From positions 1 to 46,717 of the forward strand of contig JBQLZK010000038.1 of the NCBI GenBank assembly GCA_052168235.1: DNA of 46,717 bases. Reading direction: 5' to 3'. Made by a program: the position numbers and the translations under genes. The DNA comes from Thainema sp. (GTDB lineage Bacteria; Cyanobacteriota; Cyanobacteriia; Phormidesmidales; Phormidesmidaceae). How positions within the stretch are numbered: the stretch's first letter is position 1; every line of letters starts with the position of its first letter. Below, piece after piece: positions 5,096 through 29,837 of the stretch. The notes under the pieces were generated by a model. That model did no database searches and had not been told where the DNA came from. It saw only the letters and a list, made by a program, of their open reading frames with translations.

Positions 5096-5496
5096 GCACA
5101 TTGACGGTATTAAAAGCTGTGGCAGCACCTCCTCTACTGAATGGACTGTGAAGCAGAATTCAATTCAGGGACGAAGCTGCAACGCGGTACGCTACAGGCT
5201 TTAGTACAGGGCACGTTTTAGTTGATCGACAGACAATCAAAGTCATCTACCACATTGTAGGAAAATTGGTATTTGGCTCTGTTTCTAGTGTCCTACTATC
5301 GTCTGTTAATGCAGCATTTTTAAGAGACTTCTTAACGATGTGTGTGTTCTCTCACATCTTGTACTCAAACTCAGAAGGGTTAAGTTTGCCGCTTCAGGTT
5401 TTGAAGTTACAAGATGAAAGGTATGTGTTCTATGACCTGCTGCACTTCAACATTTAGGTCAATTTTTAGAACATATTGCACAGGACACATCAAGTC

Positions 5497-6576
5497 ATGA
5501 ATTTATACCAGTTAGGCTGGAGCAAAACATTTGCTGCTGCTTTTGAATCCTTTAATGGTAAGGGATTTACCGTTGGGCGCGTTGCGTCCGAACACCGCGA
5601 TCGCTATCAGCTTTATACCGAACAGGGCGAGCTACCAGCGGAAATTACGGGCAAACTCCGCTATCAAGCCGAGGAATATCTGATCAGTGATGAACCTATG
5701 CGGCCTGCAGTCGGTGATTGGGTGGTGATTGAACTGCTCGATCAGGCGACTCACGCCATGATTCATCACGTTTTGCCGCGCCGCAGCCAGTTTTCTCGCA
5801 AAGCTGCCGGGCAGCGCACTGAAGAACAGGTGATTGCCGCTAATGTCGATACCATATTTCTAGTATCGGGATTAGACCATGACTTTAACCTGCGGCGAAT
5901 TGAGCGCTATCTGGTACTAACCTGGGAAAGCGGCGCAAATCCGGTGATTGTGCTGAATAAAGCCGATCTCTGTGTAGATCTACCCGCTCAGTTGCAGGCT
6001 GTATCTGCGATCGCACCTGGCGTCGAAATCATTACCCTGAGCGCCTTGACTTCCGAGGGACTTGAGGCGTTACAGCCCTACCTGCGACCCGGTCAAACCG
6101 TTGCCCTGCTTGGCTCATCGGGCGTTGGCAAGTCAACTCTGACTAATCAGCTCATGGGGCAAGTAACGCAAGAAACGCAAGCGGTGCGGTCAAGCGATAG
6201 TCGCGGGCGTCATACAACGACTCATCGGCAATTACTCTGCCTGCCGTCAGGCGGTTTGCTGATTGACACACCGGGAATGCGAGAGCTACAGATCTGGAGC
6301 GACGAGTCCAGCGTGCAGCAAACCTTCGAGGATATCGAGGAACTGGCAACGCAGTGTCGTTTTCGGAACTGTCAGCATCAGGATGAACCCGGTTGTGCTA
6401 TACAGGCAGCAATTTCAGAGGGCTGGCTAGACTGCGATCGCGTTGCGAGCTACCAAAAGCTAAGCCGTGAGCAAGCGTACCTCGAACGCAAGCAAGATCA
6501 ACGACTACGGGCCAACACCAAAGCCCGCTGGAAAAAGATCACCAAGCAAATGCGACAGCATTACAAGCAACGGTAA
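5497..6576 (+). CDS. rsgA: Ribosome small subunit-dependent GTPase RsgA (probably a secondary paralog)
   Basis: OB-fold [35 protein letters not shown], [14 protein letters not shown] Zn finger; ATG at 5497 preferred over TTG at 5476. Confidence 0.95.
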
Positions 6577-17803: not shown

Positions 17804-18229
17804 CTATAGCTATAGCGGTTCTAGATAAGAACGAGAGAGGAGAGTGCCTCATCTTGATGCACTCTCCTCTCTCGTTTTCTCACTCTTAACTGGAATTACT
17901 ATGTAGCTATGTTGGTTGGACGTTTGTGTCCTAACAGAACTGACTACATCAAAACCTCGCGAAACGGTGCGTTACGGCTCCGCCTAACACACCCTACAGC
18001 TACAGCATCGTGTAATTTCAGTCATTTACTGACTCACAGATTGCACCTAATCAATGAGAAATCAAGTACACCGAAAGGTTATTTTGTTACCATCATACGG
18101 CAGCGAAATAACCTTTTGGGGTTCTAGTACAAGCTATGAGTTGACTTAATGAAAAATGCGATCGCACTTCTCCTAATAGGATTCGTAGGTGCGATCGCAC
18201 ATGGTCAACACTAAAGCCAGAGCGCCACT

Positions 18230-18868
18230 CTACAAATTGAGCGGTTGAACATTCAGATCCTTCAGCGTGATTGAAAAATGGCGCTGTTCACCTGTTGCAA
18301 TGAAGGAAACAATCACCTCACAGGCCACCGCAACCGTTAGCATCACCAAATTGCGAGCTAGCGGATAATCACAAATATCATCATTCACGTCCGAAGGTAC
18401 TCGGTAATCATCATTCCAAACCACTTCCGCGTAATCAGCCGCAAGTCCCGCGTGGAGACAAGAAATTCCAGCTTGATCGACGTAATTTTTCACTGCTCGA
18501 CGAGAAATGCTGTTATCAAAAACATCAATGATCAACTTGCTCCCATTAAGGAGTTGGGCAGCATTATCTACAGTTAATTTTTTAGTTTCAATTTCGACCT
18601 TTGTGCCAATTGCTCGATACAGATTATTTGCCAAAATTTTGGCCTTAAATGCACCGACATCGGAACGATAATACGGCTGAGTTGAAAGATTCCGTTCTTC
18701 AATGCGATCGCAGTCAATTACCTTGAGTTTGCCGAACCCAGCCCGAGCCAAATTCTCAGCTAGATTGGCACCCAAAGCCCCCACGCCACAAAGAGTTACG
18801 GGATAGTCCTTCAGCTTTGCCATCACCGCATCGGTTCGGTAAAGTTGTTCATGGAGAAAGATAGTCAT
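18230..18868 (-). CDS. ThiF/E1-like adenylyltransferase (ubiquitin-like activating enzyme)
   Basis: GVGALG nucleotide loop, DxDRIEERNLSTQ, GAFKA, IIDVFDN; no CxxC Zn pairs; Cys in DDICDYP; ATGA overlap with upstream gene. Confidence 0.9.
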   Translation of the reverse strand: MTIFLHEQLYRTDAVMAKLKDYPVTLCGVGALGANLAENLARAGFGKLKVIDCDRIEERNLSTQPYYRSDVGAFKAKILANNLYRAIGTKVEIETKKLTVDNAAQLLNGSKLIIDVFDNSISRRAVKNYVDQAGISCLHAGLAADYAEVVWNDDYRVPSDVNDDICDYPLARNLVMLTVAVACEVIVSFIATGEQRHFSITLKDLNVQPLNL

Positions 18869-19692
18869 AGTCCTTCCATCACACCCACTAAGGATTGCAG
18901 GTCAAAATCGCGATCGCGCCCGCTCAAGCAAATACCAGAGCTGACTACCGTTAAGTCATTTTTTGTGATCGCACTGGTATGGCGAGTGCCGTCAGCCATT
19001 GTCCAATCAACTGTCCAGTACTCACCCCGATCCCGGAACTGGTGCAGTTCGCCGCCGCCAAGTTTGAGCGCCTGCCGCAGTCGGCGCTCGTCGCGCTGCG
19101 GTTGGGCAAATCCGGCTGTGCGCTGCGTGACTAACTCATATAGCGATCGCATTTCGGGCGTCATGTCCTTAAACTGCAAGTCTTCAACCGGAGTGAGCTG
19201 CTTGAGATTAGCTTGCAGGGTTTCTGCGATCTCAGGATCAGCCCGCCGATCAACCTCTTCAAACCAGCAGGACTGACCGTTCCAGCGAGCTGTGATTTGC
19301 TCAAATGCTACGCCTTCGGTTATCAGATGCACCAGCACGGGCTTAACAACTTTGAACCGCTGTCGCATATCCGCTTCATTGACTGGATAAGCTAGCCAGG
19401 TTCGATTCTGTAAGCGATAGGCTAACCGCAAGCGAATCGATTGAAACTGCTGCAAGTATGCAGCAATCTGGAATAGATCAGCTTCTTCTACTAGCGTTAC
19501 GGTCTGCGCATCCACAGGCTGAAAAATCCCCCATCCCTCAAACTGCTCGGGTTTCGGAATAAAGGTGTAAACCATGCCTGCAACCCGCGTGCGGACTCGC
19601 CCAGCCTTGACGCAGGGGGCGAGGAATTGAGTTGTTTGCAGGTGTGCTTCAGCACTGGCAATCTGATTCAAAAGCTGGCGGATGTCAGTCAT
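18865..19692 (-). CDS. Hypothetical protein with candidate E2-like C-terminal domain (SSGICLSG)
   Basis: 275 aa; translationally coupled between NADAR and ThiF; E2 assignment is inferred from G-I-C-L followed by an aromatic residue and an amphipathic helix. Confidence 0.8.
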   Translation of the reverse strand: MTDIRQLLNQIASAEAHLQTTQFLAPCVKAGRVRTRVAGMVYTFIPKPEQFEGWGIFQPVDAQTVTLVEEADLFQIAAYLQQFQSIRLRLAYRLQNRTWLAYPVNEADMRQRFKVVKPVLVHLITEGVAFEQITARWNGQSCWFEEVDRRADPEIAETLQANLKQLTPVEDLQFKDMTPEMRSLYELVTQRTAGFAQPQRDERRLRQALKLGGGELHQFRDRGEYWTVDWTMADGTRHTSAITKNDLTVVSSGICLSGRDRDFDLQSLVGVMEGL

Positions 19693-20125
19693 AGCGCAAA
19701 ATTTCGCGAACTTCCATTAGAATTTGTCCCAGTTTGTTCTTGCCGCTGCCGTCTTTGCCACAGCCCCAGTAGTAGTCAATAGGGGAATTTTCGACGATTA
19801 GTTCATTCCCAGTACTGAGTAAAATTTCTTGAATATTGGCATGGGTGCTAAACTTTTGCAGCACAGCTTTATGCATCACTTCATCCTTGACTTGTTCCCA
19901 GTCGGAACGAAGTGGCAATGTGCGATCGCGCCCCATGTTGGCAGCCTGTTTTGGCGTTTTGGTTTGCCGTACCTTTTCTAGATAAGAAGTGCCGACAAAC
20001 TTTTGTGCCTGAAAGTAATGTTCACTGGTTGCCCAATACAGCTCATCGAGCATGAAGCCATGCGCTGAGAAATTGGAGAAGCAACCGTAGGGTTTCTCTC
20101 GTTCAACGTAGAAATAAATGGTCAT
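19685..20125 (-). CDS. NADAR (YbiA-like) family protein
   Basis: FSNF, TSEHYFQAQKF, R.DWE.VK..VM, KF, LL.TG...IVE.SP.D.YWG.G..G.G.N.LG.ILM.VR. Confidence 0.95.
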   Translation of the reverse strand: MTIYFYVEREKPYGCFSNFSAHGFMLDELYWATSEHYFQAQKFVGTSYLEKVRQTKTPKQAANMGRDRTLPLRSDWEQVKDEVMHKAVLQKFSTHANIQEILLSTGNELIVENSPIDYYWGCGKDGSGKNKLGQILMEVREILRYD

Positions 20126-20171: not shown

Positions 20172-20255
20172 ACCCGACAATTGATTGTTTGAGAAGCTTG
20201 GCTTAGCCAAGCTTCTCAAACAATCAATTGGGTTCTTATACATGGACTCAAATCA
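20172..20255. repeat. Palindromic MITE-like element between RNA unit U1 and NADAR
   Basis: CAATTGATTGTTTGAGAAGCTTGGCT-T-AGCCAAGCTTCTCAAACAATCAATTG followed by GGGTTCTTATAC, as in the 10.3 kb and 26.2 kb elements. Confidence 0.7.
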
Positions 20256-20257
20256 TA

Positions 20258-20463
20258 CCTGCGTGCAAGTTTTTAGAGCATTGCGCGTTCTCAGTTACTT
20301 GGGGGACTCCGCTGGTGAGTTCTTACACACTCTTTCAAGGATGGCTACTTCTAAGCCCACCTCCCAGGTTCTTCGCACTCCCCGTTTACAAGCGCCCACT
20401 GCATGGCAGCGTCACGTTTCCTCTCGTACTCGTATGTAGGCTCCACAGTTTAGGGCACGCAGG
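20258..20463 (-). ncRNA. Y-RNA-like unit U1 carrying 23S sarcin-ricin loop and H42-H44 GTPase-associated-centre mimics
   Basis: Terminal stem CCUGCGUGC/GCACGCAGG; AGUACGAGAGGA at 20430-20419; CUGG-GAGGUGGGCUUAGAAGUAGCCAUCCUUGAAAGAGUGUGUAAGAACUCA-CCAG at 20367-20312. Confidence 0.85.
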
Positions 20464-20467
20464 ATAT

Positions 20468-20484
20468 ATACTACAAATACTACA
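20468..20484 (-). promoter_or_regulatory. Tandem TGTAGTAT boxes overlapping the predicted -10 of the U1-NADAR-E2like-ThiF unit
   Basis: ATACTACA at 20468-20475 and 20477-20484, 4 nt from the U1 5' end. Confidence 0.65.
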
Positions 20485-22680: not shown

Positions 22681-24150
<1,470 letters not shown>

Positions 24151-24457: not shown

Positions 24458-24604
24458 CACTTCGTGCAAGTCGAAAAAGCTGTTGTTTCATACACAGGAT
24501 TCGTAGCTTGCTTCCGCGAAGCGGTACCTATGACTGATCGATCCAAAATCGATTGCTCTACCACTGAGCCAGTATGTAAGCTTTTGGGGTTAGGGCACGA
24601 AGTG
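24458..24604 (-). ncRNA. Y-RNA-like unit U3 with embedded tRNA-like cloverleaf (anticodon UUG), T-loop interrupted
   Basis: Stem CACUUCGUGC/GCACGAAGUG; D arm UGGCUCAGUGGUAGAGC; anticodon arm AUCGA-UUUUGGA-UCGAU; T arm AUAGGU[22-nt insert]CGAAUCCUGU. Confidence 0.8.
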
Positions 24605-26008: not shown

Positions 26009-26085
26009 TGGGGTGACTGACGAGAGTCGAACTCGCTAACACTGGTGTCACAAACCAGCCCCTCCACCGCTTCGGGTTCAGTCAC
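26009..26085 (-). tRNA. trnH: tRNA-His (GUG), CCA encoded, no genomic G-1
   Basis: GTGACTG/CAGTCAC acceptor, C73, CCA; CTGGT-TTGTGAC-ACCAG anticodon arm; GCGAG-TTCGACT-CTCGT T arm. Confidence 0.9.
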
Positions 26086-26087
26086 AG

Positions 26088-26161
26088 TGGATTCTGGTCG
26101 GATTTGAACCGACATCTTTCTGCTTGCAAGGCAGATGCTTTCCCAATTAAGCTACAGACCC
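26088..26161 (-). tRNA. trnA: tRNA-Ala (UGC) with 1-nt bulge in acceptor stem
   Basis: GGGTCTG...TAGCTTAATTGGGAAAGC; TCTGC-CTTGCAA-GCAGA; GTCGG-TTCAAAT-CCGAC; 3' CAGA(A)TCCA. Confidence 0.85.
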
Positions 26162-26171
26162 AAGATGAGGG

Positions 26172-26277
26172 TAATATCAATTCCGTGTATAAGAACCCTG
26201 TTTATTTTTTGTGAAATGCTTACTAAGCAAGCATTTCACAAAAAATAAACAATGGGTTTTTAACCGGATTTTATATA
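26172..26277. repeat. Palindromic MITE-like element (family copy 2, inverted relative to the 10314 copy)
   Basis: GTTTATTTTTTGTGAAATGCTT...AAGCATTTCACAAAAAATAAAC. Confidence 0.75.
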
Positions 26278-26280
26278 AAT

Positions 26281-26400
26281 GTCGTGCAAGTTGAAAAAGC
26301 TGTTGATTCATACACAGGACTTGAACCTGCAATCGACTGTTCTAGAGACAGTTGCCCTACCATTAGGCGAGTATGTAAGCTTTTTCGATCAGGGCACGAC
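26281..26400 (-). ncRNA. Y-RNA-like unit U5 with embedded tRNA-like cloverleaf (anticodon CUA)
   Basis: Stem GUCGUGC/GCACGAC and AAAAAGCU/AGCUUUUU; D arm GCCU-AAUGGU-AGGGC; ACUGU-CUCUAGA-ACAGU; GCAGG-UUCAAGU-CCUGU; acceptor CAUAC/GUAUG continues into the scaffold with no CCA. Confidence 0.85.
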
Positions 26401-26402
26401 AA

Positions 26403-26473
26403 CGCACAGACGAGGATTTGAACCTCGAACTACGGTTTTGGAGACCGTTGTGTTGCCGTTACACTATCCGTGC
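26403..26473 (-). tRNA. trnW: tRNA-Trp (CCA)
   Basis: GCACGGA/TCTGTGC acceptor, G73; ACGGT-CTCCAAA-ACCGT; CGAGG-TTCAAAT-CCTCG. Confidence 0.93.
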
Positions 26474-26556
26474 AAGAGAGGATTAAGTGCTGAGGGCTGA
26501 ACGCTGAGGGCCAAGTAAGAATTGTGAAATTGGCTTAGCTCCTTTGCGCTGTGTTG

Positions 26557-26603
26557 ATACTACAATAATACGTATACTACAAAACGTCAAGGGATATACT
26601 ACA
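26557..26603 (-). promoter_or_regulatory. Sigma70-type promoter of the tRNA/ncRNA/Ubl/Ro operon overlapped by three TGTAGTAT boxes
   Basis: -35 TTGACG (26590-26585), 17-nt spacer, -10 TATTGT (26567-26562); ATACTACA at 26557, 26574 and 26596. Confidence 0.75.
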
Positions 26604-27523: not shown

Positions 27524-27553
27524 TTGACGCTATGTAGTACAAGAATGTAGTAT
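27524..27553 (+). promoter_or_regulatory. Promoter of the DIP1984-ncRNA-rtcB unit overlapped by two TGTAGTA(T/C) boxes
   Basis: -35 TTGACG 27524-27529, 18-nt spacer, -10 TAGTAT 27548-27553; TGTAGTAC at 27533 and TGTAGTAT at 27546. Confidence 0.75.
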
Positions 27554-27583: not shown

Positions 27584-28042
27584 ATGAAGCTAGCAGAAGC
27601 CCTGATTGTGCGGGCAGATTGTCAAAAGCGGATTGCTCAACTTCAGCAGCGCCTCATGCGGAGCGCCAAAGTGCAAGAAGGCGAGCAAGCGCCCGAAAAC
27701 CCACAGGAACTGCTGGCTGAGCTAGATGCAGCAATTGTTGAACTGACTCAACTCATCCAGCAAATTAATAAAACCAACGCTATTACCTCCTTGCAGGATC
27801 AGACTCTGTCTGAAGCCCTCGCCCAGCGGGACACCCTGCAAACGAAGCGCAATATTTACAGTCGCTTAATTGAAGCAGCAGCGATTCAGCCAACTCGCTA
27901 TAGTCAATCTGAAGTCCGCTTTGTCAGCACCGTCAACATCGCCGAACTTCAGCGCCAAGTGGATACACTGGCTCGCGACTATCGCGTTCTGGATTCTGCG
28001 ATTCAGGAGATCAACTGGCAAGTTGATTTACTCGATAATTAA
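27584..28042 (+). CDS. DIP1984-family coiled-coil protein
   Basis: MKLAEAL..RAD.QKRI.QL..R......VQEG..P.E.P..L...IN.TN...RYS.SE....S......LD..IQ..NW..DL. Confidence 0.88.
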   Translation: MKLAEALIVRADCQKRIAQLQQRLMRSAKVQEGEQAPENPQELLAELDAAIVELTQLIQQINKTNAITSLQDQTLSEALAQRDTLQTKRNIYSRLIEAAAIQPTRYSQSEVRFVSTVNIAELQRQVDTLARDYRVLDSAIQEINWQVDLLDN

Positions 28043-28655: not shown

Positions 28656-29837
28656 ATGTCCTATCAACAACTCAAAATCTCTACACCAGCGCCTGTGTTC
28701 TCCTGGGCCAATCACGACCTGGGACACGCCGAAATCAGCATGGCGAAAAACGTTGCGTCCCTTCCCTTCGTGTTTAAGCATGTGGCGCTGATGCCCGATG
28801 TGCATCTGGGTAAAGGTGCGCTAGTTGGCTCCGTCATTGCTACCAAAGACGCCATTATTCCGGCAGCAGTCGGCGTAGACATCGGCTGCGGCATGTGCGC
28901 CATTCAAACGCCGTTTCAGGCCGACCAGCTTGACGGCAAGCTGAAGAAAATCCGCTCGGATATTGAAGCGGCGATTCCGACGGGCTTTGACCAGAATAAG
29001 GAGTCCGATAAGCAAGTCGATAACTGGCAGGGCTGGCAGCAGTTCAAAGAGCTGCATTCCGGCGTGCAGCACCTAGCGGGCAAAGCCCAAAAGCAAATGG
29101 GTTCGCTGGGTGGCGGCAACCACTTCATTGAGGTGTGTCTGGATACCAACGATCAGGTGTGGCTGATGCTGCATTCTGGTTCGCGCAATATCGGCAACAT
29201 GCTGGCTCAGAACCACATCAAGACGGCCAAAGAAGTGGCGAAGCTGGCCGAAATGAAGCTACCTGATCCCGATCTGTCCTACTTCGTAGCCGGAACGCCG
29301 GAGTTTGCCGCTTACTGGCGCGATTTGCAGTGGGCGCAGGACTATGCTCGGTTCAACCGTGAGGTGATGATGACTCGCTTCAAGCGAATTGTCGAAAAAC
29401 ACCTGGCAGGCGGCAAGCCAATCAAGCCACTGCTGTCGGTAAACTGCCACCACAACTACGCCGAGCAGGAAACTCACTTTGGCGAAGCGGTGTATGTCAC
29501 CCGCAAGGGAGCCGTGCGCGCTCAAACCAATGACTACGGGATTATTCCCGGTTCAATGGGCACCAAGTCCTACATTGTCAAGGGCAAGGGCCATGCCGAT
29601 AGCTACTGCTCATGCAGCCACGGTGCTGGCCGCACGATGTCCCGTAACCAAGCTAAGAAGCGCTTTTCACTGGATGATCTACTCCAGCAAACCGAAGGCG
29701 TGGAATGTCGTAAGGACAAGGGTGTCTTGGATGAAATTCCAGGTGCCTACAAGCCAATCGATGAGGTGATGGCTAGCCAGTCTGACCTGGTTGAGATCGT
29801 GGCAACCCTAAAGCAGGTCGTCTGCGTGAAAGGCTAG
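28656..29837 (+). CDS. rtcB: RNA-splicing/repair ligase RtcB
   Basis: MPDVH.G, VGVDIGCG, GSLGGGNHF.E, LHSGSR, NCHHNY, RKGA, IPGSMG, HGAGR, DEIP.AYK, KG. Confidence 0.98.
   Translation: MSYQQLKISTPAPVFSWANHDLGHAEISMAKNVASLPFVFKHVALMPDVHLGKGALVGSVIATKDAIIPAAVGVDIGCGMCAIQTPFQADQLDGKLKKIRSDIEAAIPTGFDQNKESDKQVDNWQGWQQFKELHSGVQHLAGKAQKQMGSLGGGNHFIEVCLDTNDQVWLMLHSGSRNIGNMLAQNHIKTAKEVAKLAEMKLPDPDLSYFVAGTPEFAAYWRDLQWAQDYARFNREVMMTRFKRIVEKHLAGGKPIKPLLSVNCHHNYAEQETHFGEAVYVTRKGAVRAQTNDYGIIPGSMGTKSYIVKGKGHADSYCSCSHGAGRTMSRNQAKKRFSLDDLLQQTEGVECRKDKGVLDEIPGAYKPIDEVMASQSDLVEIVATLKQVVCVKG

Follow-up and report, generated by a model that had tools for sequence, protein, structure and literature searches.

The 46,717-nucleotide (nt) contig of the cyanobacterium Thainema sp. 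analysed here, hereafter the window, carries on its minus strand a 206-nt RNA gene in which copies of two separate parts of 23S ribosomal RNA (rRNA), the sarcin-ricin loop (SRL) and the GTPase-associated centre (GAC; helices H42 to H44), are joined. Upstream on the same strand lie the gene for a 477-amino-acid (aa) vWA protein, a tRNA-like gene, the gene for a 290-aa protein (P290) and four further tRNA-like genes. Downstream follow a long hairpin, a NADAR gene, the gene for an unnamed 275-aa protein (P275) and an overlapping ThiF/E1-like gene, and the genes for a DUF6847 protein and the RNA ligase RtcB are transcribed divergently from the upstream cluster. The best explanation of the region's sequence is that it encodes a stable, independently folding noncoding RNA of ~206 nt, whose parts are as follows.

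20258..20463, minus strand: whole RNA, 206 nt (nt 1 = 20463, nt 206 = 20258), delimited in family alignment A2
20455..20463, minus strand: 5' strand of helix P1 (nt 1-9), pairs with 20258-20266 (nt 198-206)
20440..20445, minus strand: 5' strand of helix P2 (nt 19-24), pairs with 20274-20279 (nt 185-190); also found by RNAalifold
20413..20434, minus strand: SRL-like hairpin (nt 30-51), a UACG/CGUG stem around AGUACGAGAGGA at 20419-20430
20397..20411, minus strand: P4 hairpin (nt 53-67, helix 5), right after the SRL arm
20390..20395, minus strand: 5' strand of the long-range helix P5 (nt 69-74), pairs with 20283-20288 (nt 176-181)
20301..20383, minus strand: H42-like helix (nt 81-89 with 154-163) enclosing the GAC copy, register uncertain
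20312..20367, minus strand: GAC copy (nt 97-152) with closing helix, H43 and H44; Rfam RF02541 positions 1093-1148
20289..20300, minus strand: invariant single-stranded 3' motif AAGUAACUGAGA (nt 164-175), mean identity 99.1% in 107 copies, partly by ascertainment since it overlaps the pattern of our genome scan

Both ribosomal signatures are literal. The SRL 12-mer AGUACGAGAGGA is the sole match in the window at up to one mismatch, where 0.09 would be expected and 9 of 100 shuffles yield at least one. A first-pass annotation made from the sequence had placed it at 20430-20419 within a UACG/CGUG stem, and the minus strand reads exactly so. The same annotation had aligned the H43/H44 region to 23S without gaps. 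A scan of the window with the Rfam large-subunit (LSU) model RF02541 (LSU_rRNA_bacteria) bears this out, matching 20367-20312 gaplessly over 56 nt at 53.1 bits (gathering score 50; E 4e-13); the match above the gathering score covers only model positions 1093-1148, that is H43/H44 and their closing helix, and it scores 47.9 bits when the 241-nt stretch 20240-20480 is searched alone. That stretch matches no other Rfam family at E ≤ 10, tRNA included, and the 46.7-kb window has no other Rfam match to LSU, small-subunit (SSU) or 5S rRNA. The 56-mer shares 46 of its 56 bases with the Rfam consensus and 45 of 56 with a real cyanobacterial 23S (L005, an Allocoleopsis plasmid operon, positions 1075-1130). 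Its closing helix reads CUGG/CCAG against CcaG/CugG in the consensus, a swap that the covariance model scores as compensatory, as had been proposed, and one H44 pair in the same alignment also differs from the consensus on both sides while remaining paired.

The arrangement of these elements differs from that of the ribosome. In L005 the SRL lies at 2646, 1571 nt downstream of the GAC (about 1500 had been estimated), whereas the small RNA copies ~80 nt of the 2.9-kb rRNA in the opposite order, SRL first, with 61 nt between the two elements instead of ~1570. It further departs from 23S in its swapped closing helix, a U/U/A base triple, an SRL stem of 4 bp and its position outside an rRNA operon. 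Shared with 23S are the identical SRL 12-mer, the gapless 56-nt H43/H44 junction and the loop adenines. The RNA opens with CCUGCGUGC (20463) and closes with GCACGCAGG (20258), the two strands of its closing helix.

The RNA is one member of a family. Scanning species-representative genomes with a pattern built on the invariant 3' motif, which by design detects only copies that retain that motif, returned at least 112 loci, nearly all titled cyanobacteria (Nostoc, Microcoleus, Calothrix, Tolypothrix, Anabaena, Scytonema, Pantanalinema, Crinalium and others); the L038 record bears just the title "uncultured bacterium". Among plasmids, BLAST detected full-length relatives in Kovacikia minuta (91%) and Dolichospermum flos-aquae (85.5%), and the plasmid copies found in this way also keep AAGUAACUGAGA. 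We examined 116 copies, comprising 112 loci among the matches listed, three plasmid loci and the window. The annotation had asked whether homologous loci lack the two motifs. Both are kept: the exact SRL 12-mer stands at the same distance in 109 of 116 copies, with one substitution in two others (L027, L038), and 5 of the 116 are 5'-truncated remnants (L004, L015, L028, L106, L114). In nhmmer searches the window element (20462-20259) matches the family profile at E 2.5e-65, and real 23S genes match only its GAC part. Alignment A2 holds 108 copies; excluded are four remnants, three copies carrying insertions and another that a contig end truncates. Over 107 full-length copies, mean column identity is 98.9% in the SRL 12-mer, 91.8% in the GAC 56-mer and 91.2% overall. 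The Dolichospermum and Planktothrix loci gave no Rfam match at E ≤ 0.1. The RNA is thus a conserved structured family of filamentous cyanobacteria that is absent from Rfam 15.

Some loci carry partial copies. By nhmmer, four have a 3'-truncated duplicate spanning profile positions 1-168, ~1.7 kb upstream of the full copy (L011:8116-8282, L014:11697-11864, L031:8120-8284 and L045:7091-7256), and in L011 and L045 P275 is likewise displaced by ~1 kb. These truncated second copies point to a recurrent insertion or duplication event. On plasmid p1 of Planktothrix pseudagardhii (L004:6001-6049) the last ~50 nt of the RNA are kept at 94% identity, directly upstream of an endonuclease/exonuclease/phosphatase-family gene; this piece is either a remnant or a re-used 3' module.

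We assembled a 53-pair structural model from RNAalifold helices, the Rfam GAC structure and the SRL stem, and scored it on A2. RNAalifold alone gives 41 pairs, 14 of them with compensatory changes. In the full model, standard pairs fill 95.7% of 5701 cells across the 108 copies, and 16 pairs show changes on both sides, in 268 cells. The covariation score is 0.167, against a mean of 0.106 when columns are shuffled (0 of 500 shuffles reach the observed value) and at most 0.067 when partners are slid by 1-3 columns. That selection acts on RNA structure is therefore strongly supported by the alignment, as is the earlier proposal of a single small RNA joining the SRL and H42-H44 copies under such selection.

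P1 (helix 1) has 9 pairs, 5 of them compensatory, with 90.9% of cells paired. P2 (helix 2; 97.5% paired, compensatory change in 2 pairs) closes a junction that holds the SRL arm, P4 and P5. In the SRL arm, the inner stem pair (columns 73:88) is UG in 66 copies, UA in 29, GC in 8 and GU in 1, and the C-G pair that closes the GAGA tetraloop is kept in 107 of 107 counted cells (the L015 row is gapped there). The 12-mer also retains the sequence of the bulged-G motif. P4 has compensatory change in 3 pairs, with 94:108 being AU in 67 copies, GC in 35 and GU in 4. P5 (helix 6) is 99.1% paired and varies at 115:223 (UA 53, GC 51) and 114:224 (UA 91, CG 11, UG 6), which are the two N positions of the scan pattern. 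Within the GAC copy, helices 8-13 are 97-100% paired, with compensatory change at 141:196, 143:193 and 146:169; the closing pair 141:196 is UA in 71 copies and CG in 34, and the H43 pair 146:169 is GC in 84 and AU in 22. P1 and P2, stacked as closing helices, hold a junction from which the SRL hairpin, P4 and P5 branch, and P5 carries the H42-like stem topped by the H43/H44 copy. With its invariant 3' motif and long-range helix, the molecule is a scaffolded multi-helix RNA and not two hairpins in a row.

A non-functional origin, whether as a piece of rRNA pseudogene, through chimeric assembly or from a mobile repeat, would fit the truncated remnants and duplicates and the frequent plasmid location of the locus. 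It is scarcely credible given that two rRNA elements recur in a non-rRNA order on a conserved scaffold in more than 100 genomes, with 16 compensatory pairs. A dispersed repeat is ruled out by the single full copy per locus. The annotation had itself raised a chimera with an rRNA operon; with more than 100 independent loci and no other rRNA match in the window, that is not the case. True rRNA operons, met as plasmid matches L003, L005 and L006 and used only as reference 23S, score 1741-2760 bits against 53.1 here, which excludes an operon. The short words that the RNA shares with 16S and with other regions of 23S (E 3-49) are not collinear and were taken as chance matches.

Individual ribosomal features are retained to different degrees. 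The loop adenines that we take to be A1067 and A1095 in E. coli numbering, which the annotation had described as kept, are A in 97 and 105 of 107 copies, respectively. Copies match true cyanobacterial 23S at 39-46 of 56 GAC positions (differing at 10-17) with the pairs kept, and from this limited identity it follows that the family is not homogenised by host rRNA. Resemblance extends into the flanks. GGAGCC before and GACGC after the SRL arm are common to real 23S, and the 5' strand of the H42-like helix has GGGAGUGC in common with real H42. Extra hairpins of 24-64 nt are inserted exactly at the H42-like helix in L049, L102 and L109. By topology and these short matches, read against the Rfam structure line, the closing helix, SRL hairpin, adjacent hairpin and third arm appear to parallel H94, H95, H96 and H97 of domain VI: the SRL arm followed by a second hairpin inside a closing helix would correspond to H95 and H96 within H94, and the H42-H44 arm would take the place of H97. 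With SRL and H42-H44 on one scaffold, the RNA would present both of the rRNA elements that form the docking site of translational GTPases.

The neighbouring features place the RNA among genes for RNA-related proteins and tRNAs.

18230..18868, minus strand: ThiF/E1-like adenylyltransferase, 212 aa (Pfam ThiF, E 1.4e-25); its start overlaps the P275 stop
18865..19692, minus strand: P275, 275 aa, unnamed family; AlphaFold2 (AF2) model of pLDDT 95.4 with several small beta-barrels
19685..20125, minus strand: NADAR-domain gene, 146 aa (Pfam PF08719, E 1.7e-43)
20178..20230, minus strand: long perfect hairpin and U run between the RNA and the NADAR gene (predicted fold)
20468..20484, minus strand: tandem pair of TGTAGTAT boxes that ends 5 nt before nt 1; the second box contains a TAGTAT -10-like hexamer
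22681..24114, minus strand: probable Ro60-like protein (TROVE plus vWA), 477 aa, found by phmmer to match the phage TROVE structures 9l5y/9kop
26012..26474, minus strand: four tRNA-like genes (one with anticodon CUA), with three TGTAGTAT boxes at 26557-26603
27584-28042, plus strand: DUF6847 gene, with a TGTAGTAT box upstream at 27546-27553
28656-29837, plus strand: RtcB RNA ligase gene, downstream of DUF6847

We counted neighbours by tblastn of the window proteins against 83 loci of at least 3 kb. Matches were found to the Ro-like protein in 64 loci, P275 in 62, the ThiF-like protein in 54, P290 in 39, NADAR in 6, DUF6847 in 2 and RtcB in 1. The usual order on one strand is P290, vWA (Ro-like) protein, RNA, P275 and ThiF, with the Ro-like gene within 10 kb of the RNA in all 64 loci that have it and mostly directly upstream. 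The RNA gene therefore belongs to an island of genes for a Ro60-like protein, a multi-OB-fold protein and an E1-like enzyme with tRNA-like genes or tRNA arrays, and sometimes RtcB or NADAR; plasmid BLAST matches show that the island is often plasmid-borne.

The databases name the 477-aa protein only "vWA domain-containing". Its residues 35-394 align with the phage TROVE structures at E 0.018, the DxSGS MIDAS motif included. All of the top 12 Foldseek matches of its AF2 model are Ro60/TROVE proteins (E 3e-7 to 2e-5), and unrelated folds begin at E 3e-3; the model itself is poor (pLDDT 55.6), so this result is supportive only. Pfam makes no TROVE call on the protein, and a profile of 18 close homologues gave no match in the PDB. 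On sequence and model together we assign the protein to the Ro60-like class with moderate confidence.

This neighbour suggests that the RNA may be a Y-RNA-like partner, with the P1/P2 stem and the invariant 3' motif binding the Ro-like ring and the rRNA-like module tethering Ro (and P275/ThiF) to proteins that recognise the SRL or GAC, or controlling how Ro reaches damaged 23S. In most loci the Ro-like gene precedes the RNA gene on the same strand, at a gap of ~150-200 nt in L062, L070, L026 and L015, and the ends of the RNA form a long stem. This layout matches the operons of rsr, Y RNA and rtcB, and the RNA resembles YrlA and Yrn1 Y RNAs beside rsr in adjoining a Ro60-like gene with RtcB near, in its paired ends and in having one module that imitates a component of the translation machinery (as far as described in passages of PMC4201824). 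Those passages also report few YrlA RNAs in cyanobacteria, which would leave the slot of a cyanobacterial Ro partner vacant. The Foldseek matches of the Ro-like model include PDB titles 9nfa and 9nep, and Ro60 binds misfolded rRNA. Against these parallels, the RNA imitates rRNA and not tRNA, is 206 nt long compared with 80-130 nt for known Y RNAs, and lacks a conserved Ro-binding motif GNCGAAN0-1G as given in the same source: the nearest sequence in A2, UGCGAAG at nt 87-93, varies, and neither that motif nor GGUCCGA occurs in P1/P2 (PMC4201824). The missing motif rules out a canonical Y RNA. The Ro-like protein is too divergent for Pfam TROVE, its assignment amounts to E 0.018 and a low-confidence model beside an empty PDB profile search, and Ro lies 5-9 kb away in Microcoleus-type loci. 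We consider a Y-RNA-like role unlikely as the primary one. It overlaps the decoy or adaptor role that we favour below and differs from it in the primary partner.

P275 gave nothing in Pfam, NCBIfam, PADLOC or the ESM Atlas. A word-indexed search gives 1392 relatives of it, and 735 representative clusters are reached at E ≤ 1e-3, all of them unnamed. Foldseek matches of its model are weak (best E 1.3e-3) but all to OB, S1 or cold-shock RNA-binding folds, which weakly suggests a multi-OB-fold protein. A NADAR gene stands between the RNA and P275 in 6 of 83 loci.

The hairpin at 20178-20230 is absent at this place in the other loci inspected. It may be a terminator-like or an inserted palindromic element, and as it parts the RNA from NADAR in this window alone, a small mobile palindromic repeat is suggested. 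Near-perfect long palindromic hairpins occur at 20178-20230, 26179-26270 and 17816-17899, and matches to microRNA (miRNA) models at these places are spurious.

The promoter region points to a known stress regulon. Passages of PMC10272220 place the TrcR footprint at the promoter of the Anabaena tRNA-array operon trn on TGTAGTAT, overlapping a -10 TAGTAT. TrcR represses trn and rtcB, and translation inhibitors induce both, according to passages of PMC10272220 and PMC8421152. The window has 6 exact TGTAGTAT boxes where 0.74 are expected, a number reached by no shuffle, and they stand at three promoters of one island: two before the RNA, three before the tRNA-like cluster and one before DUF6847-RtcB. 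Within 45 nt upstream of Nostoc-type copies, at least one TGTANTA[TC] box occurs in 58 of 65, two boxes in 53 of 65 and an exact TGTAGTAT in 53 of 65. The boxes at its promoter suggest that the RNA is a member of the TrcR translational-stress regulon. A gene for an RsgA-type GTPase of ribosome assembly is found at 5476-6576 on the plus strand, 14 kb away from the RNA; exact matching over the whole window finds no TGTAGTAT box near it. PMC10272220, in the portion available, lists rsgA as a TrcR target in Anabaena.

The RNA is also physically embedded among tRNA genes. ARAGORN called tRNA genes in 60 loci, and in all 12 Microcoleus-type loci scanned the RNA sits inside an array of 23-33 tRNA genes, on the same strand and with tRNA genes on both sides, usually tRNA-Arg(UCG) and tRNA-Arg(UCU). 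Arrays of 22-33 tRNA genes lie within a few kb of the RNA in Kovacikia, L049 and L053, and in Nostoc-type loci one or two isolated tRNA-like genes are present. Under the different rules of classification, 34-40 copies of the family are of the Microcoleus type, and no protein gene stands behind them; an nhmmer search found no second copy of the RNA before the Microcoleus P275 gene. The array position, the missing protein gene and the missing copy before P275 argue for a trans-acting RNA released from a tRNA precursor. Like the arrays of the TrcR regulon, then, the RNA keeps company with tRNA genes, has TGTAGTAT overlapping the -10 in the window and is linked to RtcB, and it differs from them in that it is not a tRNA.

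Several tRNA-like genes of the island are unusual in themselves. The gene with the amber-reading anticodon CUA (26305-26377, minus strand), labelled "Pyl" by ARAGORN, recurs in 25 of 60 loci scanned, in a conserved position upstream of P290 and the Ro-like gene; at the equivalent place the anticodon is UUA in L011 and UCA in L062. With such genes recurring, suppressor-like tRNAs seem to be a regular part of the island. A 94-nt tRNA-like gene between P290 and the Ro-like gene (24485-24578, minus strand; its L038 counterpart has 73 nt) is called tRNA-Gln by ARAGORN and gives a partial tRNA match of 24.8 bits in Rfam. This gene may encode either a degenerate tRNA or a tRNA mimic of the Y-RNA type.

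Combining these observations, we tentatively propose, with slightly less than even confidence, that the RNA mimics the ribosomal factor-binding site in trans or serves as its decoy, and that it is expressed together with spare tRNAs and RNA-repair genes under translational stress. The RNA would be silent in normal growth. When translation is impaired it would be made together with spare tRNAs and RtcB, and would then act in trans as a stand-in, either decoy or adaptor, for the SRL/GAC site. Candidates that it could take up include nucleases or modifying toxins directed at the SRL or GAC, thiopeptide-type drugs with L11, free L11/L10, and GTPases. It would probably work as a ribonucleoprotein (RNP) with the Ro-like protein, the OB-fold protein or both. 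A decoy or adaptor is favoured because a 200-nt fragment cannot replace the function of 23S, because the RNA is packaged together with spare tRNAs, themselves proposed to act as sponges, and because the same idea apparently arose in phages (below). The sponge role is a speculation by the array authors, who suggest in passages of PMC8421152 that array tRNAs are sponges for toxin RNases.

Several observations weigh against this proposal. The copy is imperfect at positions that matter in the ribosome. In 23S, C1072 forms a base triple with the C1092-G1099 pair (PMC8614978, in part). The equivalents in the family are U in 104, U in 107 and A in 103 of 107 copies, where the reference host-type 23S has C, C and G; all three positions have changed, and the family retains the G1071 equivalent and the G1091-C1100 pair. 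For that triple, U·(U-A) is an isosteric variant that occurs naturally. In addition, the G1068 equivalent is A in 84 of 107 copies, and the base 3' of the SRL 12-mer is A and not C as in 23S, giving a flank of A·A instead of A·C. With these positions changed, L11, thiostrepton or factors may bind the RNA differently from rRNA. The H42-like helix, which the annotation had also reported, is present in the sequence, but it contains mismatches and shows no compensatory change; 91.5% of its cells are paired, and pair 125:207 is broken in 34 of 108 copies. The predicted fold of the window copy is no more stable than shuffles (z -1.41; 17 of 200 shuffles equal it), although its centroid still recovers P1, P2, P4 and the GAC. 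As for regulation, TGTAGTAT is absent from the 45 nt upstream of the 34 Microcoleus-type and 11 Leptolyngbya-type copies, of which the Microcoleus-type presumably use the promoter of the array, and the 9-10 nt period of the boxes differs from the published repeat pattern. Finally, the RNA stands as a 5' leader before P275 or NADAR in Nostoc- and Leptolyngbya-type loci, where a cis role is possible, and in L002 and L038 the start codon follows ~10-20 nt on, with a Shine-Dalgarno-like GGAG abutting the 3' strand of P1.

These last points suit a leader that regulates in cis, in which P275, the ThiF-like protein or NADAR would bind the SRL/GAC of the 50S subunit and, when in excess, bind the look-alike 5' untranslated region and shut off expression. 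The 16 loci inspected have no obvious terminator between the RNA and the directly following P275 or NADAR gene of the Nostoc and Leptolyngbya types, and the weak matches of P275 are to OB folds of the RNA-binding type. Leaders of ribosomal-protein genes offer the precedent of an rRNA look-alike upstream of protein genes in many loci, and the L10 leader in particular mimics the H42-H44 region. Here, however, neither rplK nor rplJ lies downstream, the rRNA copy is much more literal than in known leaders, an SRL is added, and the RNA also occurs in tRNA arrays. The 34-40 array copies without a following protein gene and the lack of a copy before the Microcoleus P275 sit poorly with such a leader, as do a gap between RNA and P275 that ranges from ~10 nt to more than 1 kb and, in the window, the hairpin and U run that separate the RNA from NADAR, which has its own ribosome-binding site. 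We regard a cis leader as distinctly unlikely for the family; it and the Y-RNA-like tether may well both be partly true simultaneously.

The repair-related neighbours raise a further alternative, in which the RNA would serve as bait or sensor: Ro, P275 or the E1-like enzyme would read SRL/GAC damage on the mimic (cleavage, depurination or ADP-ribosylation) and launch a response or repair by RtcB or NADAR. Genes for repair or reversal are indeed close, with RtcB in the window and L038 and NADAR in the window and the 6 loci counted above. NADARs reverse guanine ADP-ribosylation of RNA (PMC11833690, in part), and E1-like domains occur in anti-phage systems, consistent with partial PADLOC and NCBIfam matches. 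With RtcB matched in 1 of 83 loci and NADAR in 6, both are nevertheless rare near the family, PADLOC recognises no system for P275 or Ro, and no effector such as a nuclease, pore or NADase is conserved beside the module. Such a sensor is improbable compared with the decoy or adaptor that we favour.

Imitators of the translation machinery include tmRNA, tRNA-like Y RNAs and ribosomal-protein leaders, and no free small RNA known to us reconstructs both parts of the large subunit's factor-binding site. Neither of the two papers on the tRNA arrays (PMC8421152, PMC10272220) mentions 23S, Ro60, TROVE or ThiF in the text searched, which excludes figures and supplements. A 2026 survey of RNA structures in 202 cyanobacterial genomes held nothing relevant by term search of the text available, and full-text searches of the open literature, with subscription journals outside their scope, yielded no prior description of the cyanobacterial RNA. 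Should the RNA share the ligands of the ribosomal site, structural and drug-binding work would gain a minimal model of the SRL and GAC from nature. Cyanobacterial Ro60-like proteins would then also have a candidate RNA partner, one that earlier surveys missed, and the sponge role proposed for stress-induced tRNA arrays would become directly testable through an rRNA counterpart.

Similar RNAs occur in large phages. A BLAST search of phages matched 38 nt at 92% in Pseudomonas phage UNO-G1W1, whose element (L119:2984-3196) lies between tRNA-Trp and tRNA-Arg in an array of 21 tRNA genes. It has a perfect copy of H43, a copy of the H44 loop ~130 nt further on and a 9-bp closing helix, and it matches the archaeal LSU model at E 5e-4. 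The element of phage pf16 (L122:1454-1706) lies inside a tRNA array, that of Aeromonas phage 4_4572 (L121:1421-1806) just upstream of tRNA-Met, and that of the Xanthomonas jumbo phage XacN1 (L120:1480-1840) after a 2'-5' RNA ligase gene. Like the cyanobacterial RNA, these are helix-closed copies of H43 and the H44 loop among tRNA genes or by an RNA ligase gene. They differ in carrying an insert of 115-240 nt between H43 and H44, in having no SRL 12-mer in any of the four, and in showing no similarity to the cyanobacterial scaffold outside the GAC part. By sequence they look like a separate GAC-mimic family, apparently undescribed, although no dedicated literature search was made for the phage elements.

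The phage GAC-like RNAs suggest that the principle extends past cyanobacteria into conflict between phage and host over the ribosome. A more sweeping possibility, which we put forward as doubtful, is that ribosome-site decoy RNPs form a hitherto unrecognised class, with the cyanobacterial RNA at their core. An SRL/GAC replica on a Ro-like ring with an OB-fold/E1-like module would be made with spare tRNAs under attack and would intercept ribosome-inactivating toxins or drugs, or sequester GTPases, so that ribosomes are spared; large phages would have adopted a GAC-only version independently as counter-defence. Among the remaining BLAST matches, records from Staphylococcus, Acinetobacter and Paenibacillus phage Pd_22F look like plain 23S sequence, and phages Astolliot, Milchi and XaC1 also gave matches.

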